Positions 4,214 through 35,176 of a stretch of 53,227 bases of DNA are shown in pieces. This DNA is from a phage. Under the pieces are notes generated by a model, which searched no databases, was not told where the DNA came from, and worked only from the letters and a program-made list of their open reading frames with translations. The position numbers were made by a program, and so were the translations under genes. The stretch lies in assembly GCA_014161675.1 (NCBI GenBank), contig GCA_014161675.1_4760.2; one strand, given 5' to 3'. Every line of letters starts with the position of its first letter. Position 1 is the stretch's first letter.

Positions 4214-4215
4214 AA

Positions 4216-4401: not shown

Positions 4402-4439
4402 AATTTATCATCCTCTTTTGTTTCTATCAAGCCTCATTT

Positions 4440-4447
4440 TATAAATA
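4440..4447 (+). promoter_or_regulatory. T4-type late promoter (TATAAATA) for gene 34
   Basis: Exact TATAAATA about 28 bp upstream of the gene 34 ATG at 4476, followed by AAGGAG. Confidence 0.6.
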
Positions 4448-4475
4448 TGAACATACTATAAAAGGAGACCCAATA

Positions 4476-7400
4476 ATGGCAGATTTTTCTCAACATTTCA
4501 AGGCCACATTTGGCTTTGACGCTGGTAATGAAAAGGTCGTCAATGTAGCATTGGCTGATAAGAATGTCAACACCGATGCGGTCAACGTTGAATTTTTCAA
4601 TTACCATAATGGTATTACTCAGTATGACACAACTCGCGGTTATGATCAATACGGAACTACAATCTATCAAAACCGTCCGTATTATGCAAAAGAAGATATC
4701 ACAAAGCCAGCAGGAGATTTTGACCCGACTAAATGGCAAGCACTGCGCACGGACCCACGTTGGGATTATATTGCAGCAACTTCCGGTGATACTCCTTTAC
4801 AGTCTGGCGATTATATCGCAGCAGATGGTCAATTTGCAAACTTGACTTTCTCTATGCCAACTAAACCAGCAGAGGGAGACACTATAACAGTAAAAGATAT
4901 CGGTGGCAAGTGTGGTGTTAACGAATTATCGTTCTTGAGTACAGGACATGAGTTTTACCATAATGGTAATGTGTATAACAGAAAATGGTATTGCACTACC
5001 CCGTATGCAATGAACTATTTCATCTTTGTTCGGAATCGTTGGCATGTTTATCAGACAGGAACAGAGCCACGCGGTGTGTACGCACAGCCAGCGATTGATG
5101 CTATTCAAATGCAGAATGGTGATCAGGTATTTCGTCGTAGTTCGTTGGGTAATATTACCTTAGTGCTTCCTAAGTTTGCCAACAATGGCGACATGATCCA
5201 GACTACAGACCTTGACGGATTAACCGCAACCAACCACGTTACGGTTAAAGTTCATGAGCACGCAGAAGAACAATCAATTGGCACGTCCGGTCTAAAAGAG
5301 ATTATCGGTAAGCGTAGCGGTCATGGTGTATTCATCTTTGACAAGACGGAAAACTTATGGCGTTTGTGGGATGGTGATCAGTCTGTTCGTCTTAAACCGA
5401 TCATCAATGACACTCGCTTGCAACCTAATAGCTATGTTGCTGTATTTGGTGGTCGTGATGTTACTCTGACGCTGCCGACCAATGTCGAGCCGGGTGATCG
5501 TATTCAAGTTTCTATGCAGTATATGCACGGAAACCAGAATTGCCGTATTATCACCGCCACAGAGGATACAAAAATCCTTATGTCGAAAAACATGGTTCAG
5601 TTTCCGAAGCGTAGCGAGTACCCATTCAACGGGACCGACACATGGAAGGAAGTGTCTGAATTGTCGTTCAATGCGGCTAGTGATTATGTACCTTATCTGG
5701 AGTTCTCTTATTCAGAAGGTGATGATGGTAAGAAACATTGGCTGGTAGCACACGCTCATCCGATCGTAGAACGAGTAGATCCGACTCGTAAAGCGCGTGT
5801 CGGTGTAATTGCACTGGCTACCCAGACTGAAACGAATAAAAACCATGAAGAGAATCCTAGCGACGAAGTTGCAGTAACACCAAAAATGCTGGCTAATAAA
5901 ACCGCCAACGAAACTCGACGCGGTATTGCTCGCATTGCGACTCAGGCGGAAACGCATCAAGATACTGGTTCCATCTTCCTGGATGATGTTATCGTTACGC
6001 CTAAAAAGTTAAATGACTGTGTTGCTACCGAAGCCCGTCGTGGTGTGATGGAAATTGCAACCCAGCACGAAACCAATGAAGGTTTAGATGATACCCGCGC
6101 TATTACTCCTAAGAAATTAGAAGAACGTCGCGCTTCCGAAGATCTCGCTGGTATTGCTGAAATTGTTCAGGCTGGCGGTAGTGCTGCCGCTCGACGTGGC
6201 GAAGCTGGTACAGGGATCTATAACATCAACGACCATGTTAAAATTGTTACGCCACAAAACATCAACGAAGTCAAGGCGACCGAAACTTCCCGTGGTGTTG
6301 GCTATCTGGCAACTGACGCGGAAGTGCAAGGGGCTACAGAATCAACCCCGCAAGATGCTTTACTAATCACGACTCGCACGCTAACGAAACGTACTGCTAC
6401 AGAATCGCGTACTGGTATCGCTGAAATTGCAACTCAGGAAGAAACAAACTTAGGTCAAAGTGATAACCATATCATCACGCCTAAAAAGCTGCATACTCGC
6501 CGCGCAACGGAAACTTTACATGGTTTAGCAGAAATTGCAACTCAGACGGAATTTGACGCAGGTCTTGACGATTCTCGCATTTCTACCCCATTGAAGATTA
6601 AAACCTTCTTTGAGAATGCACAGCGTTTGAAAGTAGATCCGACTCAGGGGCTTAACCTTACTGGTGATTTGTGGCAAGGTATCATGATCAGCGGTCTGGA
6701 TGCAACCGAAGACACAAAAGGTGTCGCTAAAGTTGCTACTACTCAGCTTACGGATGCTGGTCAAGATGATACTACAATCATCACGCCTAAAAAGCTGCAA
6801 GGCAAAAAAGCCACCGAAGGTAAAGAAGGCATTATCCGAGTTGGTACTCAAGCCGAAACCGTGGCTGGTATTATGGACAATGTAGCAATTTCTCCGAAGA
6901 ACTTCAAATATGTTGTTCAGACAGAGGATACATGGAAAGCAACCGAAGCGCGTCGTGGCTTCTTGAAAGTTGCTACTCAGGAAAACTGTTTTGTTGGTGA
7001 TAATCTGCAAGGTTCTACTCAAGAACTAGGAAACTACCAGCATGACGGAATTGCTGTTACTCCGAAAGGATTAAACTACGCACTTGCTAATTTCTTACCT
7101 AAGATGGCAACCGCTCAGAATAGTTTGAAATTGGGTAACGTAGAGGCCGCTAAATGGGCGCGTAGAGACATTGACCAGACCATAGAGAGCAATTATACGT
7201 TTAATAAAAACGTTAACGTGAAGGGCGATTTAGAGTGCTTAAAATCTGGTTCCTTTGAAACTCTGTCTGTGACTAAGAACTCGACCGATGTTCCGAGTAA
7301 TGGTCATCTGGTATTGGGTGAGCGTGGAGTTGACGGTCACACCGGAATTACTCTGCATGGCACAACCGCATCGGAAGGCATGAAAAACTCTTGGTCTATT

Positions 7401-8216
7401 ATCGTTGGTGGTACTGGAACAGCGCAAGTTGTTGATAGTGATGCTATCGCTTTCGGTAAAATCAATGATGGTGGAGTCGTTGAGCATTACGCCTTTGCTA
7501 TGAAACACAATGGCGACGCGACAGCATATCGAGACTTTATTGCAGGTCGTAACCTGTATGCGAAACAAGGCGGTTTATACATTGTTGACCAGTCTAATCC
7601 GGCAATGACTCGTTCCCCAGATGGTATGCTGAATATCGGTCACGGTGGAAGTGTTAACATCAAGGCAGGGCATCAAACGTTAACTACAGAGATCGCCGGA
7701 CAGAAGTATCAGATCGTACATGCAGGAAACGCTGACGAAGTTCTTAACCGTCAGTTTGTTAAGAATGCTGGCGATACAATGGTCGGTAAGCTGACTATGG
7801 ATAATGCGCCTATTGTTTCTGTTAAGCATGAAGCTAGCGCGGCAACCGCTCCGGCAATCGGTAACATCGGTTTCTGGAATATGCGAGTTACTACCCAGAA
7901 CATCAAAGAAACTTATCCAGAGAAGAAAAACGGTACTCTGATGCAATGGGGTACTGACGCGGACGGGCTTACCCAGCTTTGGTCCCCTGATGGTACTCAT
8001 AAACATTATATCCGTTCCGGTACTGGTGGTCAATGGACCGCATGGGGTGAAATTTACACCAAACAGAACAAGCCTACCGCTCAGGAAATTGGGGCAGTGG
8101 TTGCCGAAGGTGGTTTGATGAACTCTATGACGGTTCGTGATTGGATCAAAGTTGGTAATGTTAAAATCATCGCCAATAATCTGACTCGTACCGTAGACTT
8201 TATCTGGGAAGACTAA
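4476..8216 (+). CDS. 34: Long tail fibre proximal subunit gp34
   Basis: 1246 aa; recalled T4 gp34 similarity (LPKFANNGD, FPKRSEYP, repeated ITPKKL / GIAEIATQ modules, C-terminal IGAVV...DFIWED). Confidence 0.93.
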   Translation: MADFSQHFKATFGFDAGNEKVVNVALADKNVNTDAVNVEFFNYHNGITQYDTTRGYDQYGTTIYQNRPYYAKEDITKPAGDFDPTKWQALRTDPRWDYIAATSGDTPLQSGDYIAADGQFANLTFSMPTKPAEGDTITVKDIGGKCGVNELSFLSTGHEFYHNGNVYNRKWYCTTPYAMNYFIFVRNRWHVYQTGTEPRGVYAQPAIDAIQMQNGDQVFRRSSLGNITLVLPKFANNGDMIQTTDLDGLTATNHVTVKVHEHAEEQSIGTSGLKEIIGKRSGHGVFIFDKTENLWRLWDGDQSVRLKPIINDTRLQPNSYVAVFGGRDVTLTLPTNVEPGDRIQVSMQYMHGNQNCRIITATEDTKILMSKNMVQFPKRSEYPFNGTDTWKEVSELSFNAASDYVPYLEFSYSEGDDGKKHWLVAHAHPIVERVDPTRKARVGVIALATQTETNKNHEENPSDEVAVTPKMLANKTANETRRGIARIATQAETHQDTGSIFLDDVIVTPKKLNDCVATEARRGVMEIATQHETNEGLDDTRAITPKKLEERRASEDLAGIAEIVQAGGSAAARRGEAGTGIYNINDHVKIVTPQNINEVKATETSRGVGYLATDAEVQGATESTPQDALLITTRTLTKRTATESRTGIAEIATQEETNLGQSDNHIITPKKLHTRRATETLHGLAEIATQTEFDAGLDDSRISTPLKIKTFFENAQRLKVDPTQGLNLTGDLWQGIMISGLDATEDTKGVAKVATTQLTDAGQDDTTIITPKKLQGKKATEGKEGIIRVGTQAETVAGIMDNVAISPKNFKYVVQTEDTWKATEARRGFLKVATQENCFVGDNLQGSTQELGNYQHDGIAVTPKGLNYALANFLPKMATAQNSLKLGNVEAAKWARRDIDQTIESNYTFNKNVNVKGDLECLKSGSFETLSVTKNSTDVPSNGHLVLGERGVDGHTGITLHGTTASEGMKNSWSIIVGGTGTAQVVDSDAIAFGKINDGGVVEHYAFAMKHNGDATAYRDFIAGRNLYAKQGGLYIVDQSNPAMTRSPDGMLNIGHGGSVNIKAGHQTLTTEIAGQKYQIVHAGNADEVLNRQFVKNAGDTMVGKLTMDNAPIVSVKHEASAATAPAIGNIGFWNMRVTTQNIKETYPEKKNGTLMQWGTDADGLTQLWSPDGTHKHYIRSGTGGQWTAWGEIYTKQNKPTAQEIGAVVAEGGLMNSMTVRDWIKVGNVKIIANNLTRTVDFIWED
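5868..7030 (+). repeat. Intragenic tandem repeat array in gene 34 (about 9-10 units of about 38-40 codons)
   Basis: Repeated protein unit TE.RRG.A.IATQ.E...G.DD..I.TPKKL. At DNA level an exact 23-nt copy ATCATCACGCCTAAAAAGCTGCA occurs at 6471-6493 and 6777-6799, with further GAAATTGCAAC(T/C)CAG copies. Confidence 0.8.
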
Positions 8217-8221
8217 TTAAA

Positions 8222-8244
8222 GGGGGCGAAAGCCCCCTATGGGG
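8222..8244 (+). promoter_or_regulatory. GC hairpin with GAAA tetraloop at the 34/35 junction, with an alternative pairing that could mask the gene 35 ribosome-binding site
   Basis: GGGGGC-GAAA-GCCCCC immediately after the gene 34 stop; the CCCCC arm can instead pair with the GGGG 6-9 nt upstream of the gene 35 ATG. No U-tract follows. Confidence 0.4.
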
Positions 8245-8249
8245 TTATT

Positions 8250-9389
8250 ATGACACAAGATATAGAATTACGCAATACTGGAATTAGGTTTGCGCATTTC
8301 GACGAAGACTCTGCGACATTTACCAGCATTTCAGAAAATAACTCTGTGATGTATAAGCTGGAAGTGCGCGGATCTAATGCGGATTCTACCAAACCAGCAA
8401 GGATTAGATTTAATGGAGTGGAGATCGTTGGCGCTGGCTATGAAAATGGCCTAAATTTGAAAGTTCTTACTCCAACTGGACAACTACACGAAGAAAAGGT
8501 ATTCTATGGTCGCGGTGCTGTTTTGGCAATGCGTGATTATCTTTCTTTGCTGAAAGGTGATTATATCATTGCGATGGCAACTCATGGAGAATTGTTTGCA
8601 GATCCGATAAGTGATGTTGTATTTTCTAAGATGGGATCTGTATCATTCCCGAATCATATTTTGTTACAGCAAATGCCTCGCGTATCCTATGCAGCAATTT
8701 ATTCTACTAAAATGGGTAAAATTGTGTGCGAAGGGATGCAAGCGACCAACGGGGAAGGACAAGATTCATCTATACAAATTGAGAAAGTCTATGATACTAT
8801 AGATGATCTTGCTATAACAGGAACACCACAACGATTTTTAGATTATCCGGTTGAGTATGTTAGCGAAGATGCCGAACATTTCGAGCTAATACAATGGCCT
8901 CATGATGAGACCAGCGCCCCACTTGAGGATTTTAACATAAAGGCAGGTGACAAACTATCAATATCATTTGAATTGTTCCGTGATAGTGCCGCAGCCGCAG
9001 CCAACGTAACAGCGCGTTTCTATCACAACTACTTCACCGATGGACAATATAAAACTGGTGTTCGATACAATGCCAGCAAAAAAGACCAATGGGAAAAGTT
9101 TGAAGCCGTCTATACCGTACCGGAAGGAGTTGATAGTGTAGTAACTGGTTGTATCAGATATCCAACCAACTCCAATGAAGGTATTGTTAAAATTAGAAAC
9201 ATACTAATAACGCCGATCAGTGGAGTCGTCAAAACTACTGGTCCTACTTCATTTGGTGTTAATGGTGTCAGAACAACTCATATTCAGGATAACGGTGATT
9301 TTACTAACCCTGTAATGAGTCTTCTTAAACTTCCTAGAGATAATAAACACATCACATCCAACAACTTTAAAGAGTTCGATGTTGATTAA
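8250..9389 (+). CDS. 35: Long tail fibre hinge connector gp35
   Basis: 379 aa; position after 34 and a C-terminal FGVNGVR motif recalled from T4 gp35. Confidence 0.8.
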   Translation: MTQDIELRNTGIRFAHFDEDSATFTSISENNSVMYKLEVRGSNADSTKPARIRFNGVEIVGAGYENGLNLKVLTPTGQLHEEKVFYGRGAVLAMRDYLSLLKGDYIIAMATHGELFADPISDVVFSKMGSVSFPNHILLQQMPRVSYAAIYSTKMGKIVCEGMQATNGEGQDSSIQIEKVYDTIDDLAITGTPQRFLDYPVEYVSEDAEHFELIQWPHDETSAPLEDFNIKAGDKLSISFELFRDSAAAAANVTARFYHNYFTDGQYKTGVRYNASKKDQWEKFEAVYTVPEGVDSVVTGCIRYPTNSNEGIVKIRNILITPISGVVKTTGPTSFGVNGVRTTHIQDNGDFTNPVMSLLKLPRDNKHITSNNFKEFDVD

Positions 9390-9400
9390 CATTTTTAACA

Positions 9401-9431
9401 AGCCGATCCTCGTGGTCGGCTTTATTTTTAT
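9401..9431 (+). terminator. Rho-independent terminator after gene 35
   Basis: AGCCGA-loop-TCGGCT followed by TTATTTTTAT. Confidence 0.75.
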
Positions 9432-9550
9432 ACAGTTGGTTAAAATGTAACCAAAACGAAGAAAGATCTTTAGAATAATAGAAAATTTGTTTCGGTTAAA
9501 AAATAGTCAGTGCCTACGGCACGTCGCGAAGCGATATTTTGTTAACATTC

Positions 9551-9558
9551 TATAAATA
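9551..9558 (+). promoter_or_regulatory. T4-type late promoter (TATAAATA) for gene 36
   Basis: Exact TATAAATA 35 bp upstream of the gene 36 ATG at 9593. Confidence 0.6.
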
Positions 9559-9592
9559 CTCGGAACTATAACTAATTTTTTGAGGTTACTTT

Positions 9593-11083
9593 ATGGCAGA
9601 TTTGAAATATGGATCTACTGTAGGTGGATCTCCCATTTGGACGCAAGGAAACTTGACGATCCAGCCAGCGGGGGATCAGCTTTTCTACAAAGGTCATAAA
9701 ATCTATACCGCTTTTGATAGACCTTCGGCTACCGATTTTGATGCTGTTAGTGCATCCGAAGGTGGCACATTTCAAAAGCAAGTTCATTTCGAGGAAGGTT
9801 TAAGCGTAGGTAGCGCATCGGCTGGAGAAACCAAAAAGAATGGTATCTTTAAAGGTCAGAGCGACGCTGCTAATTTTGACGGCGTAAGCTGGGGTTTGCA
9901 TTCATGGAAGTCAATCGGCTTTGTTAATGCCCGTGATGGCGTTATCATGGCGTATATTGACACCACAACGGGCGAATTTAAGTCTAAAGGGACTATCGAA
10001 GGGACAACCATTAAAGACACAGGTCAACGCGTCTATAGCCCTGTTAATAAACCAACGAATAATGATTTAGATTTGGTGTCTCGTCGCGGTGATACCCTAA
10101 CAGGAACATATAATTTAAACACTGTCACTGTTAAACTATCGGTTGATTCGAAATTAATTGCAAGGGAACGTGATTTAATTAATTTTGATGCGACTAAGAT
10201 CTATTATGGTAACGTTCTTGATACGTTGGTCTTCCGAAGTAAAGATGAGCCTACCATTTTTGTTAATGGCAGAGAAGGTCGTTTTTATCACACCAACAAT
10301 AAACCAACTAAAGCCGATGTTGGGCTAGGCAATGTCACCAATGATGCACAGGTTAAACGTGCTGGTGATATTATGGAAGGTAACTTGCAAGCGCCTAGAA
10401 TGTTGGCGACAAACGATCCTGCTGGTCCTAATGAATTGGTTCGTTTGAGCTACTTTGAGAGAAAATCAATGGTAGCAAATCCAACCATCATTGGAAACGT
10501 TGATTGGAACACTCTTATTAATCGCGGTATCTATCGTGTGGAAAATGCTGGGTCGGGTACTAATAAACCGTCCGATAGCTATTATAACGGCGTTTTGATG
10601 GTATATCGCCCAGAAGATGCGGTCGGTACTCGTCGAATTGTTCAGGTGTATTATCCTGAATCTATTGACCATCCGATGTGCTGGCGTTCGTGTTCTAATG
10701 AATCATGGACTGCATGGAACTATGTAGATCACCGTAAATTAGCAGATATTCGCTATGTTAACGTAACTGGCGATACCATGACAGGACCGTTAACTGTTCC
10801 GGCTGCAAACGGTGTTAGAACGGCTAGAGGTGCATATAATGGTGATAACTACTATGCCGGGTTAAATAGTGCTGATGGTACTGCTATGATTCACCGTATC
10901 AGCGATATTAAAGCCACCGAAAAATTGGGTATTACACATGATTCTAAAGCTGTTTTCATTAAATCGCGTGGAAATACTCAAGACACAGACCGCTATGAAC
11001 TTTACCACGAAGGCCATAAACCGACACCCGCAGAGGTCGGCGCGGTTCCACTTAATGCGGTGATTGATTTTGGTACTTTCTAA
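9593..11083 (+). CDS. 36: Long tail fibre distal subunit gp36 (enlarged)
   Basis: 496 aa; N-terminus MADLKYGSTVGGSPIWTQGNL resembles recalled T4 gp36 (MADLKVGSTTGGSVIWHQGN). Contains KPT..(D/E).G motifs. More than twice the T4 length. Confidence 0.8.
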   Translation: MADLKYGSTVGGSPIWTQGNLTIQPAGDQLFYKGHKIYTAFDRPSATDFDAVSASEGGTFQKQVHFEEGLSVGSASAGETKKNGIFKGQSDAANFDGVSWGLHSWKSIGFVNARDGVIMAYIDTTTGEFKSKGTIEGTTIKDTGQRVYSPVNKPTNNDLDLVSRRGDTLTGTYNLNTVTVKLSVDSKLIARERDLINFDATKIYYGNVLDTLVFRSKDEPTIFVNGREGRFYHTNNKPTKADVGLGNVTNDAQVKRAGDIMEGNLQAPRMLATNDPAGPNELVRLSYFERKSMVANPTIIGNVDWNTLINRGIYRVENAGSGTNKPSDSYYNGVLMVYRPEDAVGTRRIVQVYYPESIDHPMCWRSCSNESWTAWNYVDHRKLADIRYVNVTGDTMTGPLTVPAANGVRTARGAYNGDNYYAGLNSADGTAMIHRISDIKATEKLGITHDSKAVFIKSRGNTQDTDRYELYHEGHKPTPAEVGAVPLNAVIDFGTF

Positions 11084-11088
11084 TTTTA

Positions 11089-11113
11089 GCGGGGAGATAA
11101 TCCCCGCTTTTCT
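11089..11113 (+). terminator. Rho-independent terminator after gene 36
   Basis: GCGGGGA-GATAA-TCCCCGC followed by TTTTCT. Confidence 0.8.
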
Positions 11114-11153
11114 AAATAATATTATTCTAATAACCGTTTAAGGATTTTATACA

Positions 11154-13937
11154 ATGGCAGATTTAAGCAGAATCCAATTTAAACGCACTAGCACTAAAGG
11201 TCGTAAACCTGATGCTAGTGCGATGAATCCTGGGGAATTGGCAATCAACCTTGCGGATCAATATCTTCTTACTAAAAATGATTCCGGTACTATTATCAAT
11301 TTAAGTTGTCCTCCGGTTTATGACCGCGATGTTACAATGGCGGGTAAGGTTAAAGGTAATAATTATATCTTAAGTAAAACCGCTAACTATCTGGAAGATC
11401 AGACAGCGAGAGATCTTAACTACTTTGGCGCTTTCCGTACCAATGGTCTTGATGGTCTTCTCGAACTCACGCTAAACGTTCCTCACTCTTCCGGTGTCCA
11501 ACATGGTCGAGGATTTACTTTCCAGTATGGACATACTGGATCACGAGTAGAAACCTATGGATATAATAGAGAAGGTCAAAAAGCATTTAGCTATAAAATG
11601 TATCACGAAGGTGATAAACCAACTCCAGGAGAATTGAACGTCTATAGCAAACAAGAAATTGACCGTATGTTTGTTAAGAACGTTAAAATGGTTGTTCCTT
11701 CTGGTGGTGCAACCCGTGGTTATTTTAAAATTGCATCCGCAATAATCCCGCAGAGTGGTCGGATGGCGTTTCTGCGAATCTATGGTGGTAATGGATATAA
11801 TGTAAACTCATATGATCAAGTTGATTTTCTTGAAATTGTTATTCGTAGTGGTAATAATAACCCTAAAGGCGTTAGTATTGCTGCATATCGTCGAAATTCT
11901 TTGAACGTCCACGAAGTATTTGCAATTAATACTTCCGGGGATAACTATGACATTTATGTTAACTATGGTCGTTACACCGATAACGTTATTGTAGAGTTTG
12001 GAAAAACTGTTGATGTTGCATTGACTGTTCACGATGTTCCTGAATTTTCGGCGACTAAACCAGCAACCGGAACTAAATTTGATGCTCGTGTTATTACGAT
12101 GTTCAACACCGAAAACAAAGCCGGAACGTTGATGTTTGATAATAACAATCAGTTAACCTATGATATTGTTAGCCTTAGCAATGGTCCTGATGATGTTAGA
12201 AATTATCTGCGTAAATTCCGAAGTAAAGCGGGTGAAATGATTTGGCATGAAACAGTTCAGGGTGCTGTATATCGTCTTGCTACTGGAACTACTGATTCTA
12301 CGGAAGTTCTTAGAGTTGATTCTAATAGTGCTATACCCGGTAGTTATAAAGGATATGTAATTACTGGTAAAATGGAATTGCATGGTAGTGGTAATTCGAT
12401 GATTTTACATCGCCAGACTGCTCAAGCCGCGTACATGTCGTGGTGGGATCGTCGTGATGGCAAAAACCAACGTAGCGGTTATATCGGTCATGCAGATGGG
12501 ACTAGTGATGCTATTGTGTGGAATAATGATATTGGACAAAACAGTGTTGTTCTAGAAACATCTGGTCAAATATCTTTCAGAACAGGTGAAACCAAAATTG
12601 TATATACCAACGGACAATATTATTCCGCTAACTCTGATGCATACCGTATGATCTTTGGTAATTACGGTGCATTCTGGCGTAATGACGGCACTAAAGTTTA
12701 TCTTCTGTCTACTGCTGAAAACGATAAATTTGGTGGTTGGAATGGTTATCGTCCATTCATTTATGATTTAACTTCCGGTAACGTTCAATTAGGCGGTGAT
12801 GGTAACGAAGAAGCATTAACGTTAGAACGTGCTTCTCGTGCCGCTCGCTTTAGTAATGACGTTTACATTAAGAAAGGGCATTTGACTTTCGACGCTGGGC
12901 GATTAAATTCCCGCGATTACTTCCGGTTTAACCATTGGGGCGATAGCAATAACGGTCGTGATAACATTCTATATCTAGAAGACAGTAAAGGTCGACATTT
13001 TAGCACCGAGCGTAATATGGCAACGGGTGCATTAAAAGCCGACTTCTTAGGCGATCTTGAAGTTGGTGGTAAGTTGATATGGGGTAAGAATACCGGACAA
13101 TCTAGCTTCAATATTCGTGCATGGGGTAATGATTCTCGTAAGCAAGTATTAGAATGCGCGGATGAAAGTGGTTGGCATTGGTATACCGAACGTACTGCGG
13201 GTGGCACTGGTCCGATTAAGTTCTCTGTTGCAGGTTCTTTCCATAGCGCAAGTGATGTTAACGTAGGCGGTAGTCTGAATTTTGGTAATGCTATTCAACG
13301 CGGCGCTAGCGTCATTACTATAGCTTCTAGTTCTGCTGGTGCTGGTTCTTTTGCATCTCAACATGATGATAACGTCAAAGCACCTATTTTCCAACGTTTA
13401 GACCGTGGTGATGCGTCTACATATGTTCCTTTGATTAAGCAACGTTATGTTCAAGGTGCAGTAACATTCTCGTTGGGTATGCTTCTTAACGAAGGTTCAT
13501 GGCGAGTTCATGTTAAAGGTTCTGGTGTTGAATCTAATACTACCTTCTATAAAAACGGCGATTTCCAAGCTGGACGCAATGGTAACTTTAACGACGTTTA
13601 CATTCGCTCTGATGCTCGCCTTAAAATCAATAAGGAAGAGTATAAAGAGAATGCCACTGATAAAGTTAATCGCTTGACTGTATACACCTACGATAAGGTT
13701 AAATCTTTAACTGACCGTACTGTCATTGCTCATGAAGTTGGTATTATTGCTCAGGATCTTGAGAAAGAATTGCCGGAAGCAGTAACAACTTCTAACATCG
13801 GCGATCCTGATAAGCCAGAAGAGATCTTAACAATTTCTAACTCTGCTGTCAACGCTCTTTTAATTAAGGCGTTTCAGGAAATGAGCGAAGAACTTAAAGC
13901 CGTTAAAGCTGAACTAGCGGAACTTAAAAAGAATTAA
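11154..13937 (+). CDS. 37: Long tail fibre distal subunit gp37 with C-terminal intramolecular chaperone (peptidase S74-type) domain
   Basis: 927 aa; recalled T4 gp37 similarity (IQFKR...KGRKP, AGAGSFASQ, DVKAPIFQRLDRGDASTYVPLIKQRYVQG). C-terminus carries YIRS-DARLK and HEVGIIAQDLEKELPEAV, the signature of autoproteolytic fibre chaperone domains. Predicted cleavage after Ser819 (codon 13608-13610). Confidence 0.9.
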   Translation: MADLSRIQFKRTSTKGRKPDASAMNPGELAINLADQYLLTKNDSGTIINLSCPPVYDRDVTMAGKVKGNNYILSKTANYLEDQTARDLNYFGAFRTNGLDGLLELTLNVPHSSGVQHGRGFTFQYGHTGSRVETYGYNREGQKAFSYKMYHEGDKPTPGELNVYSKQEIDRMFVKNVKMVVPSGGATRGYFKIASAIIPQSGRMAFLRIYGGNGYNVNSYDQVDFLEIVIRSGNNNPKGVSIAAYRRNSLNVHEVFAINTSGDNYDIYVNYGRYTDNVIVEFGKTVDVALTVHDVPEFSATKPATGTKFDARVITMFNTENKAGTLMFDNNNQLTYDIVSLSNGPDDVRNYLRKFRSKAGEMIWHETVQGAVYRLATGTTDSTEVLRVDSNSAIPGSYKGYVITGKMELHGSGNSMILHRQTAQAAYMSWWDRRDGKNQRSGYIGHADGTSDAIVWNNDIGQNSVVLETSGQISFRTGETKIVYTNGQYYSANSDAYRMIFGNYGAFWRNDGTKVYLLSTAENDKFGGWNGYRPFIYDLTSGNVQLGGDGNEEALTLERASRAARFSNDVYIKKGHLTFDAGRLNSRDYFRFNHWGDSNNGRDNILYLEDSKGRHFSTERNMATGALKADFLGDLEVGGKLIWGKNTGQSSFNIRAWGNDSRKQVLECADESGWHWYTERTAGGTGPIKFSVAGSFHSASDVNVGGSLNFGNAIQRGASVITIASSSAGAGSFASQHDDNVKAPIFQRLDRGDASTYVPLIKQRYVQGAVTFSLGMLLNEGSWRVHVKGSGVESNTTFYKNGDFQAGRNGNFNDVYIRSDARLKINKEEYKENATDKVNRLTVYTYDKVKSLTDRTVIAHEVGIIAQDLEKELPEAVTTSNIGDPDKPEEILTISNSAVNALLIKAFQEMSEELKAVKAELAELKKN

Positions 13938-13978
13938 GGAAACTCCCAGGGAAGGGAACTACTAAGGAGAAAACGGCT

Positions 13979-14218
13979 ATGGTCTATAATATCGTCATTG
14001 GTGCTTTGTCTAATTTCGGAATGAAATTATTGTCAAAGTTAATTAGTGAAAAGATGCTCACTAAAATTTTCTTCTATTGCGCTCGTCGTCTTGCGGCTTA
14101 TACCAATACGCCAATTGATGATCGTTTTGTGGAAGAACTTTATAAGGAGTTTAATAAAGATCAGTCAGAAGATAGTAACGAGCAAGATAAACCTAGTGAT
14201 AGTCAACTACCTAAATAA
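13979..14218 (+). CDS. Hypothetical protein (79 aa) between gene 37 and holin t
   Basis: ORF with AAGGAGA upstream; occupies the slot where gene 38 sits in T4 but shows no recognisable gp38 similarity. Confidence 0.45.
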   Translation: MVYNIVIGALSNFGMKLLSKLISEKMLTKIFFYCARRLAAYTNTPIDDRFVEELYKEFNKDQSEDSNEQDKPSDSQLPK

Positions 14219-14251
14219 GAGTACACTGTCATAGTTATCTTAGGGCATTAT

Positions 14252-14908
14252 ATGCAAGTTTCTGAAAAAGAGAAAGACTTTGCTATCTCAAATGTCCTGC
14301 GCGCTATTTTCACAACTAAAAGCACGGAGTTGCTCGTACTTCGTGTTTTTGCTGCCGTCGTGTTGTCCATATTAGCATTTGTCGTTTATAGTAAAAACGA
14401 GTTATTTGCGCTTTATAAAGAGACTCGTTATGAGACTTATGCTCACATTCTCCAGGTAGAGAAAGACCGCAATTTTGATAATGCAGCACAGGAGCAGTTA
14501 CAGATAGTTCATGTGTCGGCTGATGCCGATTTTTCTGCTGTTTTTAGTTTTCGTCCGAAAAACCTAAACTATTTTGTTGATTTGGTGGCATATGAAGGAA
14601 AGCTACCGCATACAATCGATGAAAAAAATTTAGGCGGATTCCCTATCAATAAAACGAGTGAAGAATATCGTAGGCATCTTTTAGGTAAATCATATTTTAC
14701 CGATAAAGATTTCCAGTATATTCCATCAAGAGAAAAGAAATTAGAGAATATCGATATAGGTTTCATGTATTCTTGTCCTATATTCAATCTCGATAATGTC
14801 TATTCTGGTAGTATCGCCATTTCATGGAAGAATAAACCGGATATTGACATTGAGAATTTAGATACTCTTTGCAATCAATCTGCCAGAATCCTCGGAAGGA
14901 TTAGATAA
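14252..14908 (+). CDS. t: Holin T
   Basis: 218 aa; recalled T4 holin similarity (YETY, LQIVHVSADADFSAVFSFRPKNLNYFVDLVAYEGKLP, MYSCPIFNLDNVYSG, ARILGR). Confidence 0.9.
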   Translation: MQVSEKEKDFAISNVLRAIFTTKSTELLVLRVFAAVVLSILAFVVYSKNELFALYKETRYETYAHILQVEKDRNFDNAAQEQLQIVHVSADADFSAVFSFRPKNLNYFVDLVAYEGKLPHTIDEKNLGGFPINKTSEEYRRHLLGKSYFTDKDFQYIPSREKKLENIDIGFMYSCPIFNLDNVYSGSIAISWKNKPDIDIENLDTLCNQSARILGRIR

Positions 14909-14914
14909 CTTAAA

Positions 14915-14946
14915 GGGGAAGCCTTTCGGCCTCCCCTTCTTTTTAT
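14915..14946. terminator. Terminator hairpin between convergent genes (t and the 82-aa ORF)
   Basis: Imperfect GC-rich stem GGGGAAGCC-TTTC-GGCCTCCCC followed by TTCTTTTTATT on the plus strand; the minus-strand U-tract is weaker. Confidence 0.6.
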
Positions 14947-15191
14947 TGGCGCATAGAAGCCCCTGAATCACATTTTGACGCTGTATGATGAAAACATGTA
15001 GCGTACCAGTCATCGGCTTGCTTGTCTTCGTCAGAAAACGCGTAATTTCGTTGTACGCCGTTTTCTACTTTGACCAGTGCAATAGCTGTTTCTGGAAGAT
15101 CAATCAATCGGACAAAATCACCATCTTCCCACTCTACACGAGCAATATCATAGCCCATCTCAAAGTATACAATCGCTTGTTCTAATTTCAT
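14943..15191 (-). CDS. Hypothetical protein (82 aa)
   Basis: ORF convergent with t. N-terminus MKLEQAIVYFEMGYDIARVEW loosely resembles a small phage DUF family; not verified. Confidence 0.45.
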   Translation of the reverse strand: MKLEQAIVYFEMGYDIARVEWEDGDFVRLIDLPETAIALVKVENGVQRNYAFSDEDKQADDWYATCFHHTASKCDSGASMRQ

Positions 15192-29153: not shown

Positions 29154-29256
29154 TATTAAACCTCTTCATAACATAACCATAACTTACTGCAACCGCCACA
29201 AAGACGGCTGCAACAATCATATTAAAAATTGAGTGATTGTCAAGTATATGACTCAT
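29146..29256 (-). CDS. Candidate 36-aa hydrophobic micro-ORF
   Basis: ATG overlaps the FmdB-like stop (ATGA); hydrophobic core MIVAAVFVAVAVSYGYV; its stop overlaps the gene 39 start. Speculative; competes with the promoter call at the same place. Confidence 0.25.
   Translation of the reverse strand: MSHILDNHSIFNMIVAAVFVAVAVSYGYVMKRFNNE
29216..29243 (-). promoter_or_regulatory. Candidate sigma70-type promoter upstream of gene 39
   Basis: Minus strand TTGACA (29238-29243), 16-bp spacer, TATGAT (29216-29221); AAGAGG lies 9 nt upstream of the gene 39 ATG. Confidence 0.4.
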
Positions 29257-29426
29257 GACACGCGCACATTTTTATCATAGTACCCGCCATTAATCCCGCG
29301 CGGGGCAGTCAATCCCTGTTTGCATTCTTTACCACATTCAGGGCATTCTGCCTTTTCCCGCTCGGAAATTTTGCGGATTTTCTGAAATTGACCGTGTTCT
29401 TCACAAGAATAATCGTATAATGGCAT
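29253..29426 (-). CDS. FmdB-family zinc-ribbon protein
   Basis: Start placed at the internal Met (MPLYDYSCEEHGQF...CPECG...), the canonical FmdB-type start with CxxH and CxxC pairs. The track's N-terminal extension overlaps dexA. Confidence 0.55.
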   Translation of the reverse strand: MPLYDYSCEEHGQFQKIRKISEREKAECPECGKECKQGLTAPRGINGGYYDKNVRVS

Positions 29427-29427
29427 A

Positions 29428-30096
29428 TTATCCCCTTTGTTTCTTAACTGAATTTGGATCTGGATTTTCTGGTAGGTCTTCCAGACCCATAGCATAACGT
29501 TGTGCATAGATTAGCATAAGAATATCGCGAGCGCAATCATGAATTGCATCATGTGCGATAAAACCATCTAGCGTACCCATTGGTAACGGACACTCACACA
29601 TCCCGCGATGCATCAATGTACGCTCAATGGCGGTGCGAACATCTCGGATGTTCCAGAATCGCACAGGTTCAAGATTGAACGTCTCTCGTGTATTGTGTGC
29701 ACGGCGGATCATATCAACTAGTAACGGAATATCAAACGCATTACCGCGTGACCACATTACGGATTTAACCGGATCTACTCCTACGGCTTCACAGAATGCG
29801 TTAAAACGCGCTAAACCTTCTTTAGTTGATACTTCCGTACCATTTGTGATTAATTGCTTTCTCATGCCTTCTGAGGCGGTATTCTTCCACCATTCAACTA
29901 CACCATGATCAAACACCCTTACACCTTTCTGGGAAGGAATATCAAATTTTACCAGAAAGGAATTGTCAACCAGTTCTTTAAATGTAGGTGGGTTGTGCGG
30001 ATCTTCTTTAAATCCGATTGCCGCCATATTGATCACCGCCCCATCAGGCGGATAACCTAAACTTTCAAAGTCAATCATTAAATCCACTGGAAGCAT
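29428..30096 (-). CDS. dexA: Exonuclease A (DexA)
   Basis: Recalled T4 DexA similarity (IDFESLG, KFDIPSQKG, EWWKN, FDIPLLVDMIR, FNLEPVRFWNIRD, CPLPMGTLDGFIAHDAIHDCARDILM, RYAMGLED). Start set at the Met of MLPVDLMIDFE. Confidence 0.85.
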   Translation of the reverse strand: MLPVDLMIDFESLGYPPDGAVINMAAIGFKEDPHNPPTFKELVDNSFLVKFDIPSQKGVRVFDHGVVEWWKNTASEGMRKQLITNGTEVSTKEGLARFNAFCEAVGVDPVKSVMWSRGNAFDIPLLVDMIRRAHNTRETFNLEPVRFWNIRDVRTAIERTLMHRGMCECPLPMGTLDGFIAHDAIHDCARDILMLIYAQRYAMGLEDLPENPDPNSVKKQRG

Positions 30097-30519: not shown

Positions 30520-31911
30520 TCAAATATAGTCTACTCGATACCGCGCACGGGTAACACCCACATATAATAACTGCATTGCCAGTTCAAAGTCAACATTGTC
30601 TGTACACATGCAAGGAGTATACAGGAACACGCGGTCTACGCTGATCCCTTGTGACTTATGAATGGTGCAAGCTGGTAATGCTTTTACATTCAAGAACATA
30701 CGCTTCATCGTCCAGAAGGAATCCCAATCTGGTTTAAATTTTGGATTCTCTTTCTTCATTTCGCGATATTGTCCGGCGACCGTATTCAGATAGATAGAGA
30801 AAATGTTCTTCTGACGTTGTTCTGTCAGAATGTTGATTTCTACTAAATCTGGTTTATCTGTAGTGATTCCGACTGCATCTAAACCGACTTTCTGATTTAG
30901 GATTTCTTTGTCTTCGTCATCATCGACGCTTTCCACTTTCAGAGTATATCCTAAAACTGGTTGCGGATCTACCCCCGTGCAACGTAATGTAAATTCACGC
31001 GGGATGACCTCTTTAACTCGGATCATCTCACCATTGTTAAAAATAACATTGGGAATCTTCTTCCCGCGTTCATCTCGCAGATATTCGATCAATGGTTCCT
31101 GAGTAACCAGAATTTCATCTACAATCACTGGTTCATCGGTGTTATAAACGCGCTTACGCACAATTTCATTGAGTTTTTCGACGCTCTTGTTAGTGTAGGC
31201 CAGAATACGGTTTTCTAGAAGGTCTTCCGGCGTTTTAACGGTTTCGAAATAATGCTTCATAAACTCCGGCAGAGTTGAGCTATGGAATACACCCTCGTTA
31301 CCGCACTGCTTTTCGAATACCCATTTACCATTACGGACAGCGGTCGCCACATCAATGATCGGTGCATTAGATCGTTTAATTTCTGTGAGTTCTACATTCT
31401 GGAATCTTTCATCGGTGAAGAAAGGAGAGATCGACGTTGCACCGCTCGGATCAACTGGTCGTAACTGGTGCGGATCGCCCACGGCAATAATAACAATTCG
31501 ACCGTTGATACTCTTCATGAGAATATCAAATAGTTTCTTATCGACCATACTCGCTTCATCAACAATGATGATCTGAACATCATCTAGCTTAGGAGTATCT
31601 TTTTGCTCAAATACTTGAGTATCTTCATAGTTGGTCGGGTTTAGTCGCAGTAGTGCATGTAAAGTAAATGCTTGACGACCTACCGCTTTACTCAAAACTT
31701 TTTTAGCCTGGTGGGTAGGCGTTGCCAAAACCACACCAGTTACACCACGGCGGACCATTTCCTGAACAATGAATTTCATCATTGCGGTTTTACCAGTACC
31801 CGCCGCACCACGGACAGTTGTATGCTTCTTTTGTTCAATGCGTTTCATTAGAACATCAAAAGCATGTTTTTGCCCGTCTGTTAACATATCGAAAGTTAAT
31901 ACTCTGCTCAT
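30520..31911 (-). CDS. dda: Dda DNA helicase (SF1B)
   Basis: 463 aa; recalled T4 Dda similarity (LTDGQKHAFD, GAAGTGKT, ATPTHQAKKVLSK, VDEASM, EIKRSNAPIIDVATAVRNGKW, LPACTIHKSQG, LLYVGVTR). Confidence 0.92.
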   Translation of the reverse strand: MSRVLTFDMLTDGQKHAFDVLMKRIEQKKHTTVRGAAGTGKTAMMKFIVQEMVRRGVTGVVLATPTHQAKKVLSKAVGRQAFTLHALLRLNPTNYEDTQVFEQKDTPKLDDVQIIIVDEASMVDKKLFDILMKSINGRIVIIAVGDPHQLRPVDPSGATSISPFFTDERFQNVELTEIKRSNAPIIDVATAVRNGKWVFEKQCGNEGVFHSSTLPEFMKHYFETVKTPEDLLENRILAYTNKSVEKLNEIVRKRVYNTDEPVIVDEILVTQEPLIEYLRDERGKKIPNVIFNNGEMIRVKEVIPREFTLRCTGVDPQPVLGYTLKVESVDDDEDKEILNQKVGLDAVGITTDKPDLVEINILTEQRQKNIFSIYLNTVAGQYREMKKENPKFKPDWDSFWTMKRMFLNVKALPACTIHKSQGISVDRVFLYTPCMCTDNVDFELAMQLLYVGVTRARYRVDYI

Positions 31912-32225
31912 TATCCTAAAATCCTCACCTTGCGAACACAGATAGTATTGAGTTCTCGCCGTACCCGTTCTTTTTCATATTCAGGAATTTTATATTCGAT
32001 ACCATCCCGAACAATTTCAGAAGACCGGATTATGCCAAATTTTCGTTTAGGTACAACCTTGTATTTCGGTTCACCCGCCAATAGACTCTCACAATAATCT
32101 ATCTGATCACACATTGACGCTAACGCAGCATCATGTGTTTCGCAAGTTAGGACGCGACCTTTCGCGTCCACTGAGTATTGAAAGAATCCGTCTTTATCAC
32201 GATAACATACAGCAAATACATGCAT
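31911..32225 (-). CDS. Hypothetical Cys-rich protein (104 aa)
   Basis: ORF with ATGA-type coupling to dda. Confidence 0.45.
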   Translation of the reverse strand: MHVFAVCYRDKDGFFQYSVDAKGRVLTCETHDAALASMCDQIDYCESLLAGEPKYKVVPKRKFGIIRSSEIVRDGIEYKIPEYEKERVRRELNTICVRKVRILG

Positions 32226-32980
32226 TATAAACCTACCTTCGCTTTCATCAATTCAATCCACGACGCATCAATCGGAAGCCCGTATTTCACGCGTTCTTTT
32301 TGTGCTGGCGTTAAGTTCTCATACTTAGAAAGAGATTCAATCAAAACGCTGGTATATTTTAGCACGATTTCGGTATTGTTTGCAATAGCCTTAAGTTTTT
32401 CCTCTTTCTTGTTGATTTCGCTAAGTGCTTGCTTGAGATCTGCAATTTTCTGATAACGTTCTTCCATACGGAAGAGAGTATTTTTAATCGCTCGCTCGGC
32501 TGCCTCTGCTTTCTCCGGTTCGTTGTGCTTTTTGTGGCGCTCGATTGCTAATTTCTTTTCTTCGATTGCCATTTCCTGATTTTTGATGCGATTCTCGTTA
32601 AGTTCGATCCACTCGATGTACTTCGCACGTAGGGCAATTTCATCATCAGAAAGTTTACCTTTAGTTCCCAGTTCCTGGATCTCTTTAAGAGATTCGATAG
32701 TGTGATTGCCACGGAAAGAATTGTATTTCAGTTTAACCGGAATTACATTGCCATCAACATATCCCAGATTGCAATCAATGCGCTCTAAGGAGAGTCCGTC
32801 ATCACCTTCACCGAAAGCCTCACCTGAATAGGCACAATGAGTCTGACGGTAAATGTTACGAACAGTGACTAAGCTCATAGAGAAGTCTTTGTTGCGACGT
32901 GAAGCACCAGCCATGATAGAGTTCAGCCGGAAAACAACCAGCGCCAATTCTTCGTTAGATTTAAAAGCAAACAGTTTCAT
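32225..32980 (-). CDS. Hypothetical protein with degenerate HNH-like N-terminal signature and coiled-coil C-terminus (positional counterpart of T4 srd)
   Basis: 251 aa; N-terminal CAYSGEAFGEGDDGLSLERIDCNLGYVDGNV resembles an HNH core with the catalytic His replaced; the C-terminal half is Glu/Lys-rich. Position after dda matches T4 srd, but identity is not verified. Confidence 0.4.
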   Translation of the reverse strand: MKLFAFKSNEELALVVFRLNSIMAGASRRNKDFSMSLVTVRNIYRQTHCAYSGEAFGEGDDGLSLERIDCNLGYVDGNVIPVKLKYNSFRGNHTIESLKEIQELGTKGKLSDDEIALRAKYIEWIELNENRIKNQEMAIEEKKLAIERHKKHNEPEKAEAAERAIKNTLFRMEERYQKIADLKQALSEINKKEEKLKAIANNTEIVLKYTSVLIESLSKYENLTPAQKERVKYGLPIDASWIELMKAKVGL

Positions 32981-33009
32981 AATTGATTCTCCTTAGTTGG
33001 TATGTGTGT

Positions 33010-33039
33010 ATTATTGTCTATCTGGTTTGTGCTGTCAAC
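33010..33039 (-). promoter_or_regulatory. Candidate sigma70-type promoter
   Basis: Minus strand TTGACA (33034-33039), 18-bp spacer, AATAAT (33010-33015), then ACACACATACC resembling the shared early-promoter box. Confidence 0.4.
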
Positions 33040-33041
33040 AC

Positions 33042-33545
33042 TTAAATTAAAGAAAATTTGTAAATCTCTATCAGATCGCCGTTACACGCGTAAACTTCCT
33101 CGATCTCATCAAGGATCATGGTCGTCCCTGTCTTGTATATGCACTCGCGCTCATCTGCCAACATAGCATACAAAGACAGTCGAGTAGTCGGATTGTCATA
33201 CTCTTTAGACACCACTCGGTCAATAGCATGTTCGTAATAATTCATGCAAGGCTTGGTAGGTTTTATTGCAATAATCTTTCCTGTTGCATAAACATCGGTC
33301 GCAAAGTCCTCTGCTGTTGATTGCAGTGGCGTAAAGCTCATAGGACGCTCTACAACGAAAGAATCACCTACAATTAAGGTATCCAGCTTACGGCCTTCTC
33401 TTTTGCTCACACCGCGATACAAGGCTTCATGATGCACTAACCGCTCAGTCTTTTCAATCAATCCATTAAGGATCGACATATCGATATTTTCTTTAGAGTT
33501 CATCACTTCATCAATGATGTTAAGTTCTTCTGGTGTAAATTGCAT
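33042..33545 (-). CDS. Putative ADP-ribosyltransferase-like protein (positional counterpart of T4 modA/modB)
   Basis: 167 aa with R-S-ExE-like spacing (ALYRG, SFTPLQST, ADERE); position between the srd-like gene and gene 56. Weak assignment. Confidence 0.35.
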   Translation of the reverse strand: MQFTPEELNIIDEVMNSKENIDMSILNGLIEKTERLVHHEALYRGVSKREGRKLDTLIVGDSFVVERPMSFTPLQSTAEDFATDVYATGKIIAIKPTKPCMNYYEHAIDRVVSKEYDNPTTRLSLYAMLADERECIYKTGTTMILDEIEEVYACNGDLIEIYKFSLI

Positions 33546-33547
33546 AA

Positions 33548-33577
33548 TAAAAAAGCCTCCAATCTTTCGACGGGAGG
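33548..33577 (-). terminator. Terminator-like hairpin that contains the ribosome-binding site of the next gene
   Basis: Minus strand GCCTCC-12 nt loop-GGAGGC followed by TTTTTTATT and then the ATG at 33545; the downstream arm GGAGG doubles as the Shine-Dalgarno. Confidence 0.5.
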
Positions 33578-33614
33578 CATAATAAAACCATTATAGAGTA
33601 TTGTCAACTAATTT

Positions 33615-34139
33615 TTAGTAGCCGCGTTCTTGACGGGCGAAGTTTTCAGCATTTTTCAGATAGTACAGAATAAAGAGTTCTTGAGCGTCAATACCCAGCG
33701 GGATCATCTTTGACAGAATGAAGTGGATCGCGTCCACAAATTCAAATTTCACTTCAAGCTGATCTTCCGGTGACAGTTCAGAGAATTTACGCGCTCGCGC
33801 TTCCCCGTGGTTCTTTTTCCACATTTTCCAGATTGCACTTGCATCTTTACCATTGGACATTCCACCCAGCGATGTGTAAAGCTCTCGTGTTTCGTCTGCG
33901 ATAGCGTCATCCATCCGTTGCATCCAATCCAGCATTTCACCGCAAGTCTCTAGCTTAGTTGGATTTGGGACCCAATCAAATTTTTCGGATAATGCAACCT
34001 GCAAACCAGTTTGCATTTCGAGCATCACCTGAAACGGATCTTTACCTTCTGCAATAGCGTGATGATATGCGGCGATAGCCGCGTTAATATCTTTTTCGTT
34101 AACCAGACCAGCACAAGAATTAAATTCTGACATATTCAC
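33615..34139 (-). CDS. 56: dCTP pyrophosphatase gp56 (MazG-like)
   Basis: 174 aa; recalled T4 gp56 similarity (EGKDPFQVMLEMQ, PTKLETCGEMLDWM, SPEDQLEVKFEFVDAIHFIL, LYYLKNAENFARQERGY). Confidence 0.8.
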   Translation of the reverse strand: MNMSEFNSCAGLVNEKDINAAIAAYHHAIAEGKDPFQVMLEMQTGLQVALSEKFDWVPNPTKLETCGEMLDWMQRMDDAIADETRELYTSLGGMSNGKDASAIWKMWKKNHGEARARKFSELSPEDQLEVKFEFVDAIHFILSKMIPLGIDAQELFILYYLKNAENFARQERGY

Positions 34140-34147: not shown

Positions 34148-35176
34148 TTAAAATTTACAATATTTCATAAACCGCATTTTAGCCATCAGACCTTGTACGG
34201 TGTTCTCTTTGATATATTCCATGATCTGGTCGCGTGTAGCACCCTCATCCTGAATCATGGCGTTAACGTCTTTAGAATGCCACGGGCAACGATCCCACAA
34301 AACAATCTTTTCCCCTGCATTGATAAACTTTTCCAGTCGGTGCATTGTATCGGCAGACCGTGGTTCCGCATCAAGTACAAACACTCGCTGATCAGGGAAA
34401 GGTATTTCATCTAATCCCAAAGTACCGCCAGTAATTGCACACCCGTTATCAATAAACAATGAATCGATCGGACCTTCTAAGAAATACACTGGTTTACTCG
34501 GATCGGCGCGTTCAATACCATAGACCTTACTCGCTAACTCATGAGTTTTAATCGTCATATATTTGGTCTTTCCGTAATCCTTTCTCAATGCTCGCCCCTG
34601 AATGGATTCTATCTTGTTCTCGCGGTTAAAGATAGGAATCACTAAACGAGGTTCAGGTTGCGGATTCTTGAAGGTATCCGCTTTAATGTGATTTGCTACC
34701 TTTTGCCATTCTCTCGTGAAATACAGAAGATCCCATTTATCGTGGGGAATGCAACGATCACTGACATACTTTATTATAGGATGATTAGCCGGAAGAGTGT
34801 CTAATCTCTCGCAGAAAGGCAATGTTTGCACTTTCTTAATCTCCGGCTTTTCTACCTTTTTCAGTGGCTTGAACGTGGTGTTCTTGTGGTCGCCTTGTTC
34901 CTTCCGACGTTCCATAAGCCATTCCCTGAATAAGTCCGGCTTATACTGTTTGAGAAATTCACCTAACGGCTGATTGTAGTTACAGTTGAAACAGCCGCAA
35001 CGCAAACTATCCTTATAGGTATAGATACGGAATCGCGCTTGAGTATGATTTTTCTTTGAGTCACCGCAGATCGGACAACTACAGACCAGCGTAAATGAGC
35101 TAGTATGCAACCGTTTAAAATTTCGTTCGCCGTATATGGCTTTTTCCGCTATTTCATAATCTGCGTAGTAAATCAT
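34148..35176 (-). CDS. 61: DNA primase gp61
   Basis: 342 aa; recalled T4 gp61 similarity (zinc ribbon CPICGDSK...CFNCNY, HPIIKYV, EPRLVIPIFN, QGRAL, LEGPIDSLFIDNGCAITGG, IMEYIKENTVQGLMAKMR). Confidence 0.92.
   Translation of the reverse strand: MIYYADYEIAEKAIYGERNFKRLHTSSFTLVCSCPICGDSKKNHTQARFRIYTYKDSLRCGCFNCNYNQPLGEFLKQYKPDLFREWLMERRKEQGDHKNTTFKPLKKVEKPEIKKVQTLPFCERLDTLPANHPIIKYVSDRCIPHDKWDLLYFTREWQKVANHIKADTFKNPQPEPRLVIPIFNRENKIESIQGRALRKDYGKTKYMTIKTHELASKVYGIERADPSKPVYFLEGPIDSLFIDNGCAITGGTLGLDEIPFPDQRVFVLDAEPRSADTMHRLEKFINAGEKIVLWDRCPWHSKDVNAMIQDEGATRDQIMEYIKENTVQGLMAKMRFMKYCKF

Follow-up and report, generated by a model that had tools for sequence, protein, structure and literature searches.

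The adjacent srd and mod genes of an RB49-like phage: a putative PacI-type head on Srd and a compact ADP-ribosyltransferase of the ModA/ModB family

Background

ADP-ribosyltransferases of the R-S-ExE clade catalyze an NAD+-dependent transfer to arginine, and bacteriophage T4 encodes two of them, ModA and ModB. The target of ModA is the alpha subunit of RNA polymerase. The modification targets of ModB are S1, EF-Tu and trigger factor; it also RNAylates S1 and L2, and RNase E is a substrate in vitro. The R73A substitution in ModB abolishes ADP-ribosylation and RNAylation alike (PMC10468400). Another T4 protein, Srd, binds RNase E in its catalytic N-terminal half and promotes the decay of host mRNA, according to the passages on Qi 2015 in PMC13232886, PMC7430671 and PMC4980113. 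Here we analyse the counterparts of these genes in a stretch of phage DNA of 53,227 nucleotides (contig GCA_014161675.1_4760.2 of NCBI GenBank assembly GCA_014161675.1; the window, below), in which two open reading frames (ORFs) of 167 and 251 amino acids (aa) lie next to each other. Probably this interval consists of two early host-takeover genes, one for a Srd homologue linked to RNase E and one for a transferase of the ModA/ModB family, each following its own promoter-like site of the sigma-70 type.

The restriction endonuclease PacI enters the comparison through the N-terminal head of Srd. PacI is the prototype of group 20 of the His-Me fingers (Jablonska et al. 2017), in which the catalytic His is absent, a Tyr of the omega loop takes over its role, and the metal ligands are a single Asp and a single Asn (PMC5714182, PMC4081073). 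The His-Me finger classification (PMC5714182) does not mention Srd, and our literature search found no paper linking Srd to PacI. Both phage genes are already known and annotated, and identifying them adds nothing new; what the analysis contributes is the PacI-type reading of the Srd head, which is its main fresh point, together with the finding that the anti-sigma label of Srd is unsupported and the proposal that RB49-type phages carry a single Mod that is neither ModA nor ModB.

Identity and domain architecture of Srd

The window comes from a Krischvirus, an RB49-like phage of the T4 type: over positions 31800-33700 its DNA shares 99.5% identity with Escherichia phage PTE-Eco09 and 98.7% with RB49. 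In RB49 the two ORFs are annotated as modB (RB49p014) and srd (RB49p013), and the same annotated pair is found in about 60 sibling genomes. The 251-aa protein shows 98-100% identity to the Srd proteins of Krischviruses, matches PHROG 1400 ('Srd anti-sigma factor') over residues 8-248 (E=6.9e-74), and aligns with T4 Srd (NP_049634) over residues 8-247 at 32% identity (E=1e-28). The order srd-dda.1-dda(-dexA) is kept in T4, RB49, S16, the Dhakaviruses and two distant metagenomic phages or contigs. An earlier note, made from the letters of the window, had placed the 251-aa gene at the Srd position near dda, and the PHROG match, the T4 match and the synteny with dda.1 and dda all agree with it. 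T4 Srd is of about equal length (248 vs 251 aa), has the same three-part layout and likewise lies directly upstream of dda.1-dda; the two proteins have the head motif CAYSG...SLER.D...GY..GNVI.V...YN in common, whereas the coiled-coil region is poorly conserved and gapped between them.

The AlphaFold model of Srd (pLDDT 93.8; 66-sequence alignment) begins with helices at residues 9-28 and 37-45, followed by a beta-beta-alpha unit in which an 11-residue loop separates the two strands (Table 1), a helix at 95-106, two long antiparallel helices at 112-151 and 155-221, and two short helices at the C-terminus. Residues 101-221 are 40% charged and 32% Glu plus Lys. Srd would accordingly be built in three parts, namely a head with a PacI-type beta-beta-alpha (His-Me finger) unit, an antiparallel coiled-coil stalk whose length varies among homologues, and a conserved C-terminal motif. 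The head reads CAYSG...LSLERID...GYVDGNVIPV...YN, with Arg at the canonical HNH position of His. The earlier note had described an HNH-like core without its catalytic His, fused to a long Glu/Lys-rich helix, and the profiles and the model both recover this arrangement; its further description of the fold as degenerate does not hold, the His position being an invariant Arg and the equivalents of the PacI active site being strictly conserved. Matches in the two structure searches with the Srd model were dominated by the coiled coil. The isolated head had no above-threshold match in Pfam or NCBIfam, and the Pfam copy searched holds no model covering it; a weak Pfam match to DUF5507 (E=0.13) was disregarded, and single-sequence searches of the PDB returned nothing meaningful.

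The Srd head and restriction endonuclease PacI

An exhaustive profile search recovered 4218 cluster representatives (50% identity) at E<=1e-3, about 70 of which are full-length Srd-like proteins, the others sharing the head only. The head-only forms are stand-alone proteins of roughly 100 aa, C-termini of proteins of roughly 190 aa, or arrays of 2-4 tandem copies, and at cluster level they carry almost no annotation. An 852-aa protein of the dinoflagellate Polarella glacialis has four copies of the Srd-type head.

Conservation within the head was counted over 170 domain copies. Cys occupies position 49 in 167 of them, Glu or Asp position 66 in 168, Arg position 67 in 168 (His never does), Tyr position 74 in 169, Asn position 78 in 169, and Asn position 87 in 168. 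Among 66 full-length Srd-type proteins clustered at <=50% identity, C49, Y51, E66, R67, G73, Y74, N78, V79 and N87 are invariant. The family is therefore without the catalytic His with which strand 1 ends in canonical HNH enzymes. A Cys4 zinc site is absent as well: C49 alone is kept, position 52 is Ser or Thr, and no CxxC precedes N87. The missing His of Srd is a family feature and not a product of decay, and the head with the DR/GY/N/N pattern would mark out an extensive clade of His-Me fingers without the His, with more than 4000 clusters at 50% identity.

PacI is the top match when the head profile is compared with PDB sequences (E=0.54), and hhalign pairs the Srd head with it at a probability of 80%. 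A hidden Markov model (HMM) of the 170 head copies scores PacI at 18.2 bits (E=0.017 in a PDB-sized search), as compared with 8.4 bits for the best of 2000 shuffles. The relevant PacI segment in turn matches the same PHROGs as the Srd head, namely phrog_1035 (1.7e-5), phrog_3322 (3.5e-4) and phrog_3118 (0.043). In the alignment, C63-x-Y-C66-G, D92-R93, Y100, N104 and N113 of PacI correspond to C49-x-Y-S52-G, E66-R67, Y74, N78 and N87 of Srd. The features of a PacI-type domain, [DE]-R in strand 1, an omega-loop Tyr and Asn...Asn, are all present in the Srd head, at modest statistical support. Common to PacI (3ldy/3m7k) and the head is the motif C-x-Y-x-G ... [DE]-R-x-D ... G-Y ... N ... N-x-x-K, and both proteins combine an Arg at the position of the His (for Arg93 of PacI, as the alignment would place it) with an omega-loop Tyr and metal ligands of the Asp/Glu plus Asn type. 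They differ in that Srd keeps one of the four zinc cysteines (C49) and is fused to a coiled coil, and in that DNA cutting is known for PacI and not for Srd.

Two phage proteins annotated as 'HNH endonucleases' appear to bridge the distance between Srd and PacI. Lactococcus phage PhiM1127 gp03 and Pseudomonas phage PaMx28 gp09 (PHROGs 3118, 3322 and 1035) have the same DR/GY/N/N head as Srd (E=3.5e-9 and 2.2e-11 with the head HMM). The former is a zinc-intact intermediate and the best phage match of PacI: it reads CFYCG...GIDRIDSSKGYIKGNVVTSCKYCN and, unlike Srd, retains CxxC...CxxC. Both proteins are without the coiled coil and the C-terminal motif of Srd, and their genes adjoin terminase or portal genes. 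At the profile level, these comparisons support the reading of the Srd head as a PacI-type nuclease-like domain that has kept the active-site constellation and lost three of the four zinc cysteines.

What Srd may do

By homology with T4 Srd, the RB49-type protein would most likely bind host RNase E in its catalytic N-terminal half and speed the decay of host mRNA. The commonest database label suggests otherwise: Srd would be an anti-sigma factor, or a decoy of sigma-70/sigma-S, that redirects RNA polymerase and does not act on RNA decay. We consider this very improbable, since the Pfam families of sigma factors gave no match to the window Srd at E<=1 or to T4 Srd at E<=10, the head that the family conserves resembles a nuclease and not a sigma factor, and the label is only 'postulated', the reported experiment on T4 Srd being RNase E binding and stimulation. 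The label 'anti-sigma factor' thus finds no sequence support here, and we propose 'RNase E-stimulating protein Srd' in its place.

Because the PacI-like residues are so strictly conserved, the head may well retain binding of metal and/or nucleic acid. A stronger claim would be that it is a working PacI-type metal-dependent nuclease or nucleic-acid binder, contributing cleavage or capture of its own beyond allosteric activation of RNase E. This we regard as unlikely: three of the four PacI-stabilising zinc cysteines are gone from Srd, the link to PacI is made at the profile level, and T4 Srd is reported to act through stimulation of RNase E, in papers that make no mention of an intrinsic nuclease activity, even though every equivalent of the PacI active site is kept (E/D66 and N87 as metal ligands, Y74, R67 and N78), all five being invariant in the 66 full-length proteins. 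The PacI counterpart of Y74 is the omega-loop Tyr that serves as general base or nucleophile, and those His-Me domains that are reported to be inactive (Smad MH1, Enpp) are without both the catalytic His and an equivalent Tyr (PMC5714182). There is a similarly small chance that the head is a functional Tyr-dependent, metal-binding nucleic-acid domain of the PacI type, and that RNase E-dependent decay of host mRNA owes its speed to the capture or nicking of host RNA (or DNA) by this domain. For the favoured RNase E-stimulating role, too, the PacI-equivalent residues offer point mutants (Y74F, E66A and N87A) with which Srd-driven mRNA decay can be probed.

Mod as an ADP-ribosyltransferase

The 167-aa protein (Mod) is 100% identical to RB49 'ModB' and matches PHROG 832 ('RNA polymerase ADP-ribosylase') with E=1e-20. 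BLAST aligns it with T4 ModB at 33% identity over residues 2-113 (E=8e-11, 44.7 bits) and with T4 ModA at 23% identity over residues 3-155 (E=2e-6, 32 bits), and a relative 99% identical to it has a precomputed assignment to Pfam PF26816.1, a model that the Pfam copy searched does not contain. Its motifs are R44 (in LYRGV), S70-F-T72 and E132-R-E134, and R44, G45, S70, E132 and E134 are among the invariant columns of an alignment with Mod proteins of T4, S16 and Dhakaviruses (T4 equivalents in Table 1). Since these columns are invariant with T4 ModA, T4 ModB and their relatives, the R-S-ExE spacing reflects homology and not chance.

The fold agrees with the motif. With the AlphaFold model of Mod (mean pLDDT 89.2, pTM 0.82; 12-sequence alignment), Foldseek returned 100 PDB matches at E<=1e-3, and all 50 of the 50 listed are ADP-ribosyltransferases of the R-S-E type, including Certhrax (4fk7, E=6.5e-7, TM 0.64), CDTa, VIP2, C3bot, Iota Ia, ExoT and HopU1. 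Mod has the same fold as the Certhrax, VIP2, Iota and C3-like toxins (4fk7, 1qs2, 2wn7 and 1g24; probability 1.0, E down to 6e-7, query-normalised TM up to 0.64); sequence identity to such R-S-E bacterial toxins is only 10-17%, and Mod is smaller than they are and without toxin delivery domains. The sequence profile of Mod also reaches XopAI, an ART-like type III effector, with the match at the R...ExE segment (E=0.019). The earlier note had read the spacing R...S...ExE in this second gene as a hint of an ADP-ribosyltransferase of the ModA/ModB class, and family (PHROG 832, BLAST), motif and fold each confirm it, profile search and structure prediction both being positive and the similarity at the fold level clear. 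Among the arginine-specific R-S-ExE mono-ADP-ribosyltransferases of the ModA/ModB family, Mod is a minimal form. It would bind NAD+ through R44, S70 and E132/E134 and pass ADP-ribose to host proteins of transcription or translation, and NAD-capped RNA could be a second substrate if Mod behaves like T4 ModB.

ModA, ModB or a third kind

With T4 ModA and ModB, which have 200-207 aa as compared with 167 in Mod, the protein shares the R-S-ExE residues and the genomic neighbourhood, at an identity of only 23-33%. It is the sole Mod copy in RB49-type genomes, whereas Tequatroviruses and Dhakaviruses have two. In a neighbour-joining tree Mod branches together with two relatives from metagenomes (74% and 63% identity), and this group falls outside the clades of T4 ModA, T4 ModB and the Dhakavirus proteins; 'ModB', as used in RB49, therefore names the best hit and does not demonstrate orthology, and the target of Mod cannot be read from its sequence.

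That Mod is nevertheless a strict orthologue of ModB, with S1, EF-Tu and trigger factor as its targets and RNAylation of S1-domain proteins, and with neither a ModA-like nor a third specificity, strikes us as doubtful. The RB49 annotation (modB) and the higher BLAST score of T4 ModB, which favours ModB slightly, speak for it, to be set against the position of the Mod clade in the tree, the end of the T4 ModB alignment before the ExE half of Mod, and the location of mod adjoining srd, which is the ModA position. The best matches of Mod are moreover divided between a srd-proximal paralogue (dhabil_78, 62-64 bits) and a distal one (IME08 modB, 60 bits). The sequence comparisons instead point to RB49-type Mod as a trimmed, single-copy ADP-ribosyltransferase distinct from both ModA and ModB. 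As a compact enzyme it lends itself to asking what the ancestral target specificity is and whether RNAylation occurs outside T4.

The Mod family is narrow, its profile recovering 15 clusters among 5.8 billion proteins; a word-indexed protein search gave 3 relatives of Mod and 7 of Srd. On a distant metagenomic T4-like contig (5209-8262) the order is 56 - small ORF - srd - dda.1 - dda, and no Mod-family gene lies upstream of srd. As srd is kept there without Mod, Srd is much more widely conserved than Mod.

Expression signals and the reading of the locus

Within the interval, each of the two genes follows a promoter-like site that matches the consensus at 11 of 12 positions (Table 1), and srd has AAGGAG 8 nt before its ATG. 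Downstream, the TAATG stop/start overlaps suggest that srd, dda.1 and dda are translationally coupled. A stable hairpin followed by six U residues separates the promoter-like -10 element from the mod ATG, and 0 of 200 shuffles fold as well; the relatives in which this spacer is covered are all at >=95% identity. The 3' arm of the hairpin supplies the Shine-Dalgarno sequence of mod (GGAGG), and the 5' arm overlaps the predicted transcript start of the local promoter-like site. Hairpin and U6 look like a terminator for the gene 56 transcript. RNA reading through from gene 56 would either terminate at the hairpin or have the mod ribosome site masked by it, and RNA begun at the local promoter-like site would leave that ribosome site free. 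The layout is similar to other arrangements in which the ribosome site is hidden in read-through RNA and exposed in the locally started transcript.

In T4, RNase E is both a binding partner of Srd and an in vitro substrate of ModB, so that adjacent srd and mod may converge on the same host machine, which we offer as a lead only.

Several points weigh against reading the interval in this way. The function of the RB49-type Srd is carried over from T4 across 32% identity. As a database-wide statistic the PacI match is marginal (E 0.017 to 0.54), and Pfam and NCBIfam gave no above-threshold match to Mod or Srd. Mod is without about 30 N-terminal residues and a 12-residue insert that precedes the ARTT/ExE region in T4 ModA/ModB, and its choice of substrate may therefore differ from theirs. 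The promoter sites, finally, are consensus matches only, in a region not enriched in them (9 found vs 6.4 expected).

Feature coordinates and gene neighbourhood

The minus strand is the coding strand of all genes in this part of the window, and transcription runs through gene 61, gene 56, mod, srd, dda.1 and dda; read along the plus strand, the two ORFs lie between dda plus dda.1 and gene 56. Coordinates are collected in Table 1.

Table 1. Features of the srd-mod locus, with positions numbered from the first letter of the window
Feature	Position	Strand	Basis or remark
gene 61, primase	34148-35176	-	ORF in transcription order
gene 56, dCTPase	33615-34139	-	flanks mod on its upstream side
Sigma-70-type early-promoter-like site, TTGACA-17-TATTAT, 11/12	33579-33607	-	consensus match; in the 69-nt gap between gene 56 and mod
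Hairpin GCCUCC...GGAGGC, then U6	33549-33578	-	dG -15 kcal/mol, z = -4.2
mod, 167-aa R-S-ExE mono-ADP-ribosyltransferase, ModA/ModB family	33042-33545	-	PHROG, BLAST, alignment, AlphaFold, Foldseek
Mod R44 codon	33414-33416	-	= ModB R73 = ModA R72
Mod S70 codon	33336-33338	-	= ModB S99 = ModA S96
Mod E132 and E134 codons	33150-33152 and 33144-33146	-	= ModB E171/E173 = ModA E163/E165
Sigma-70-type early-promoter-like site, TTGACA-17-AATAAT, 11/12	33010-33038	-	consensus match; in the gap between mod and srd
srd, 251-aa Srd homologue	32225-32980	-	PHROG, T4 Srd BLAST, profile search, AlphaFold
Srd N-terminal head, aa 9-106 (two helices, then strand 63-67, omega loop 68-78, strand 79-83, helix 84-90)	32663-32956	-	model, profiles
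Srd antiparallel Glu/Lys-rich helical hairpin, aa 112-221, of varying length among homologues	32318-32647	-	
Srd conserved C-terminal motif, aa 222-251, family consensus FENLS..K...K.GLPL..S...LK	32228-32317	-	alignment
TAATG stop/start overlap, srd/dda.1	32223-32227	-	sequence
dda.1	31911-32225	-	Pfam Phage_Y01A, E=7e-21
TAATG stop/start overlap, dda.1/dda	31909-31913	-	sequence
dda, helicase	30520-31911	-	ORF

The interval from srd to gene 56 (32980-34139) is far more compact than its T4 counterpart (T4 locus 4786-9786): it holds a single mod where T4 has modA plus modB, and modA.2-A.4, srh, mrh, mrh.1/.2, soc and segF are all absent from it. Some sibling Krischviruses (KFS-EC and vB_EcoM_G37-3) have an extra insertion in this interval that the window does not have, and in vB_EcoM_G37-3 the insertion is annotated as 'putative HNH endonuclease'.

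A scan of the whole window with Rfam gave no family at the gathering threshold. Between gene 39 and dexA, an 84-aa ORF at 29253-29507 on the minus strand has a zinc-ribbon pattern, CxxC...CxxC, and its RB49 counterpart is annotated as an FmdB-like regulator. From 4000 to 15000 the GC skew turns positive, which indicates a block transcribed from the plus strand, unlike the remaining window, and GC content reaches about 0.46 at 5-8 kb.

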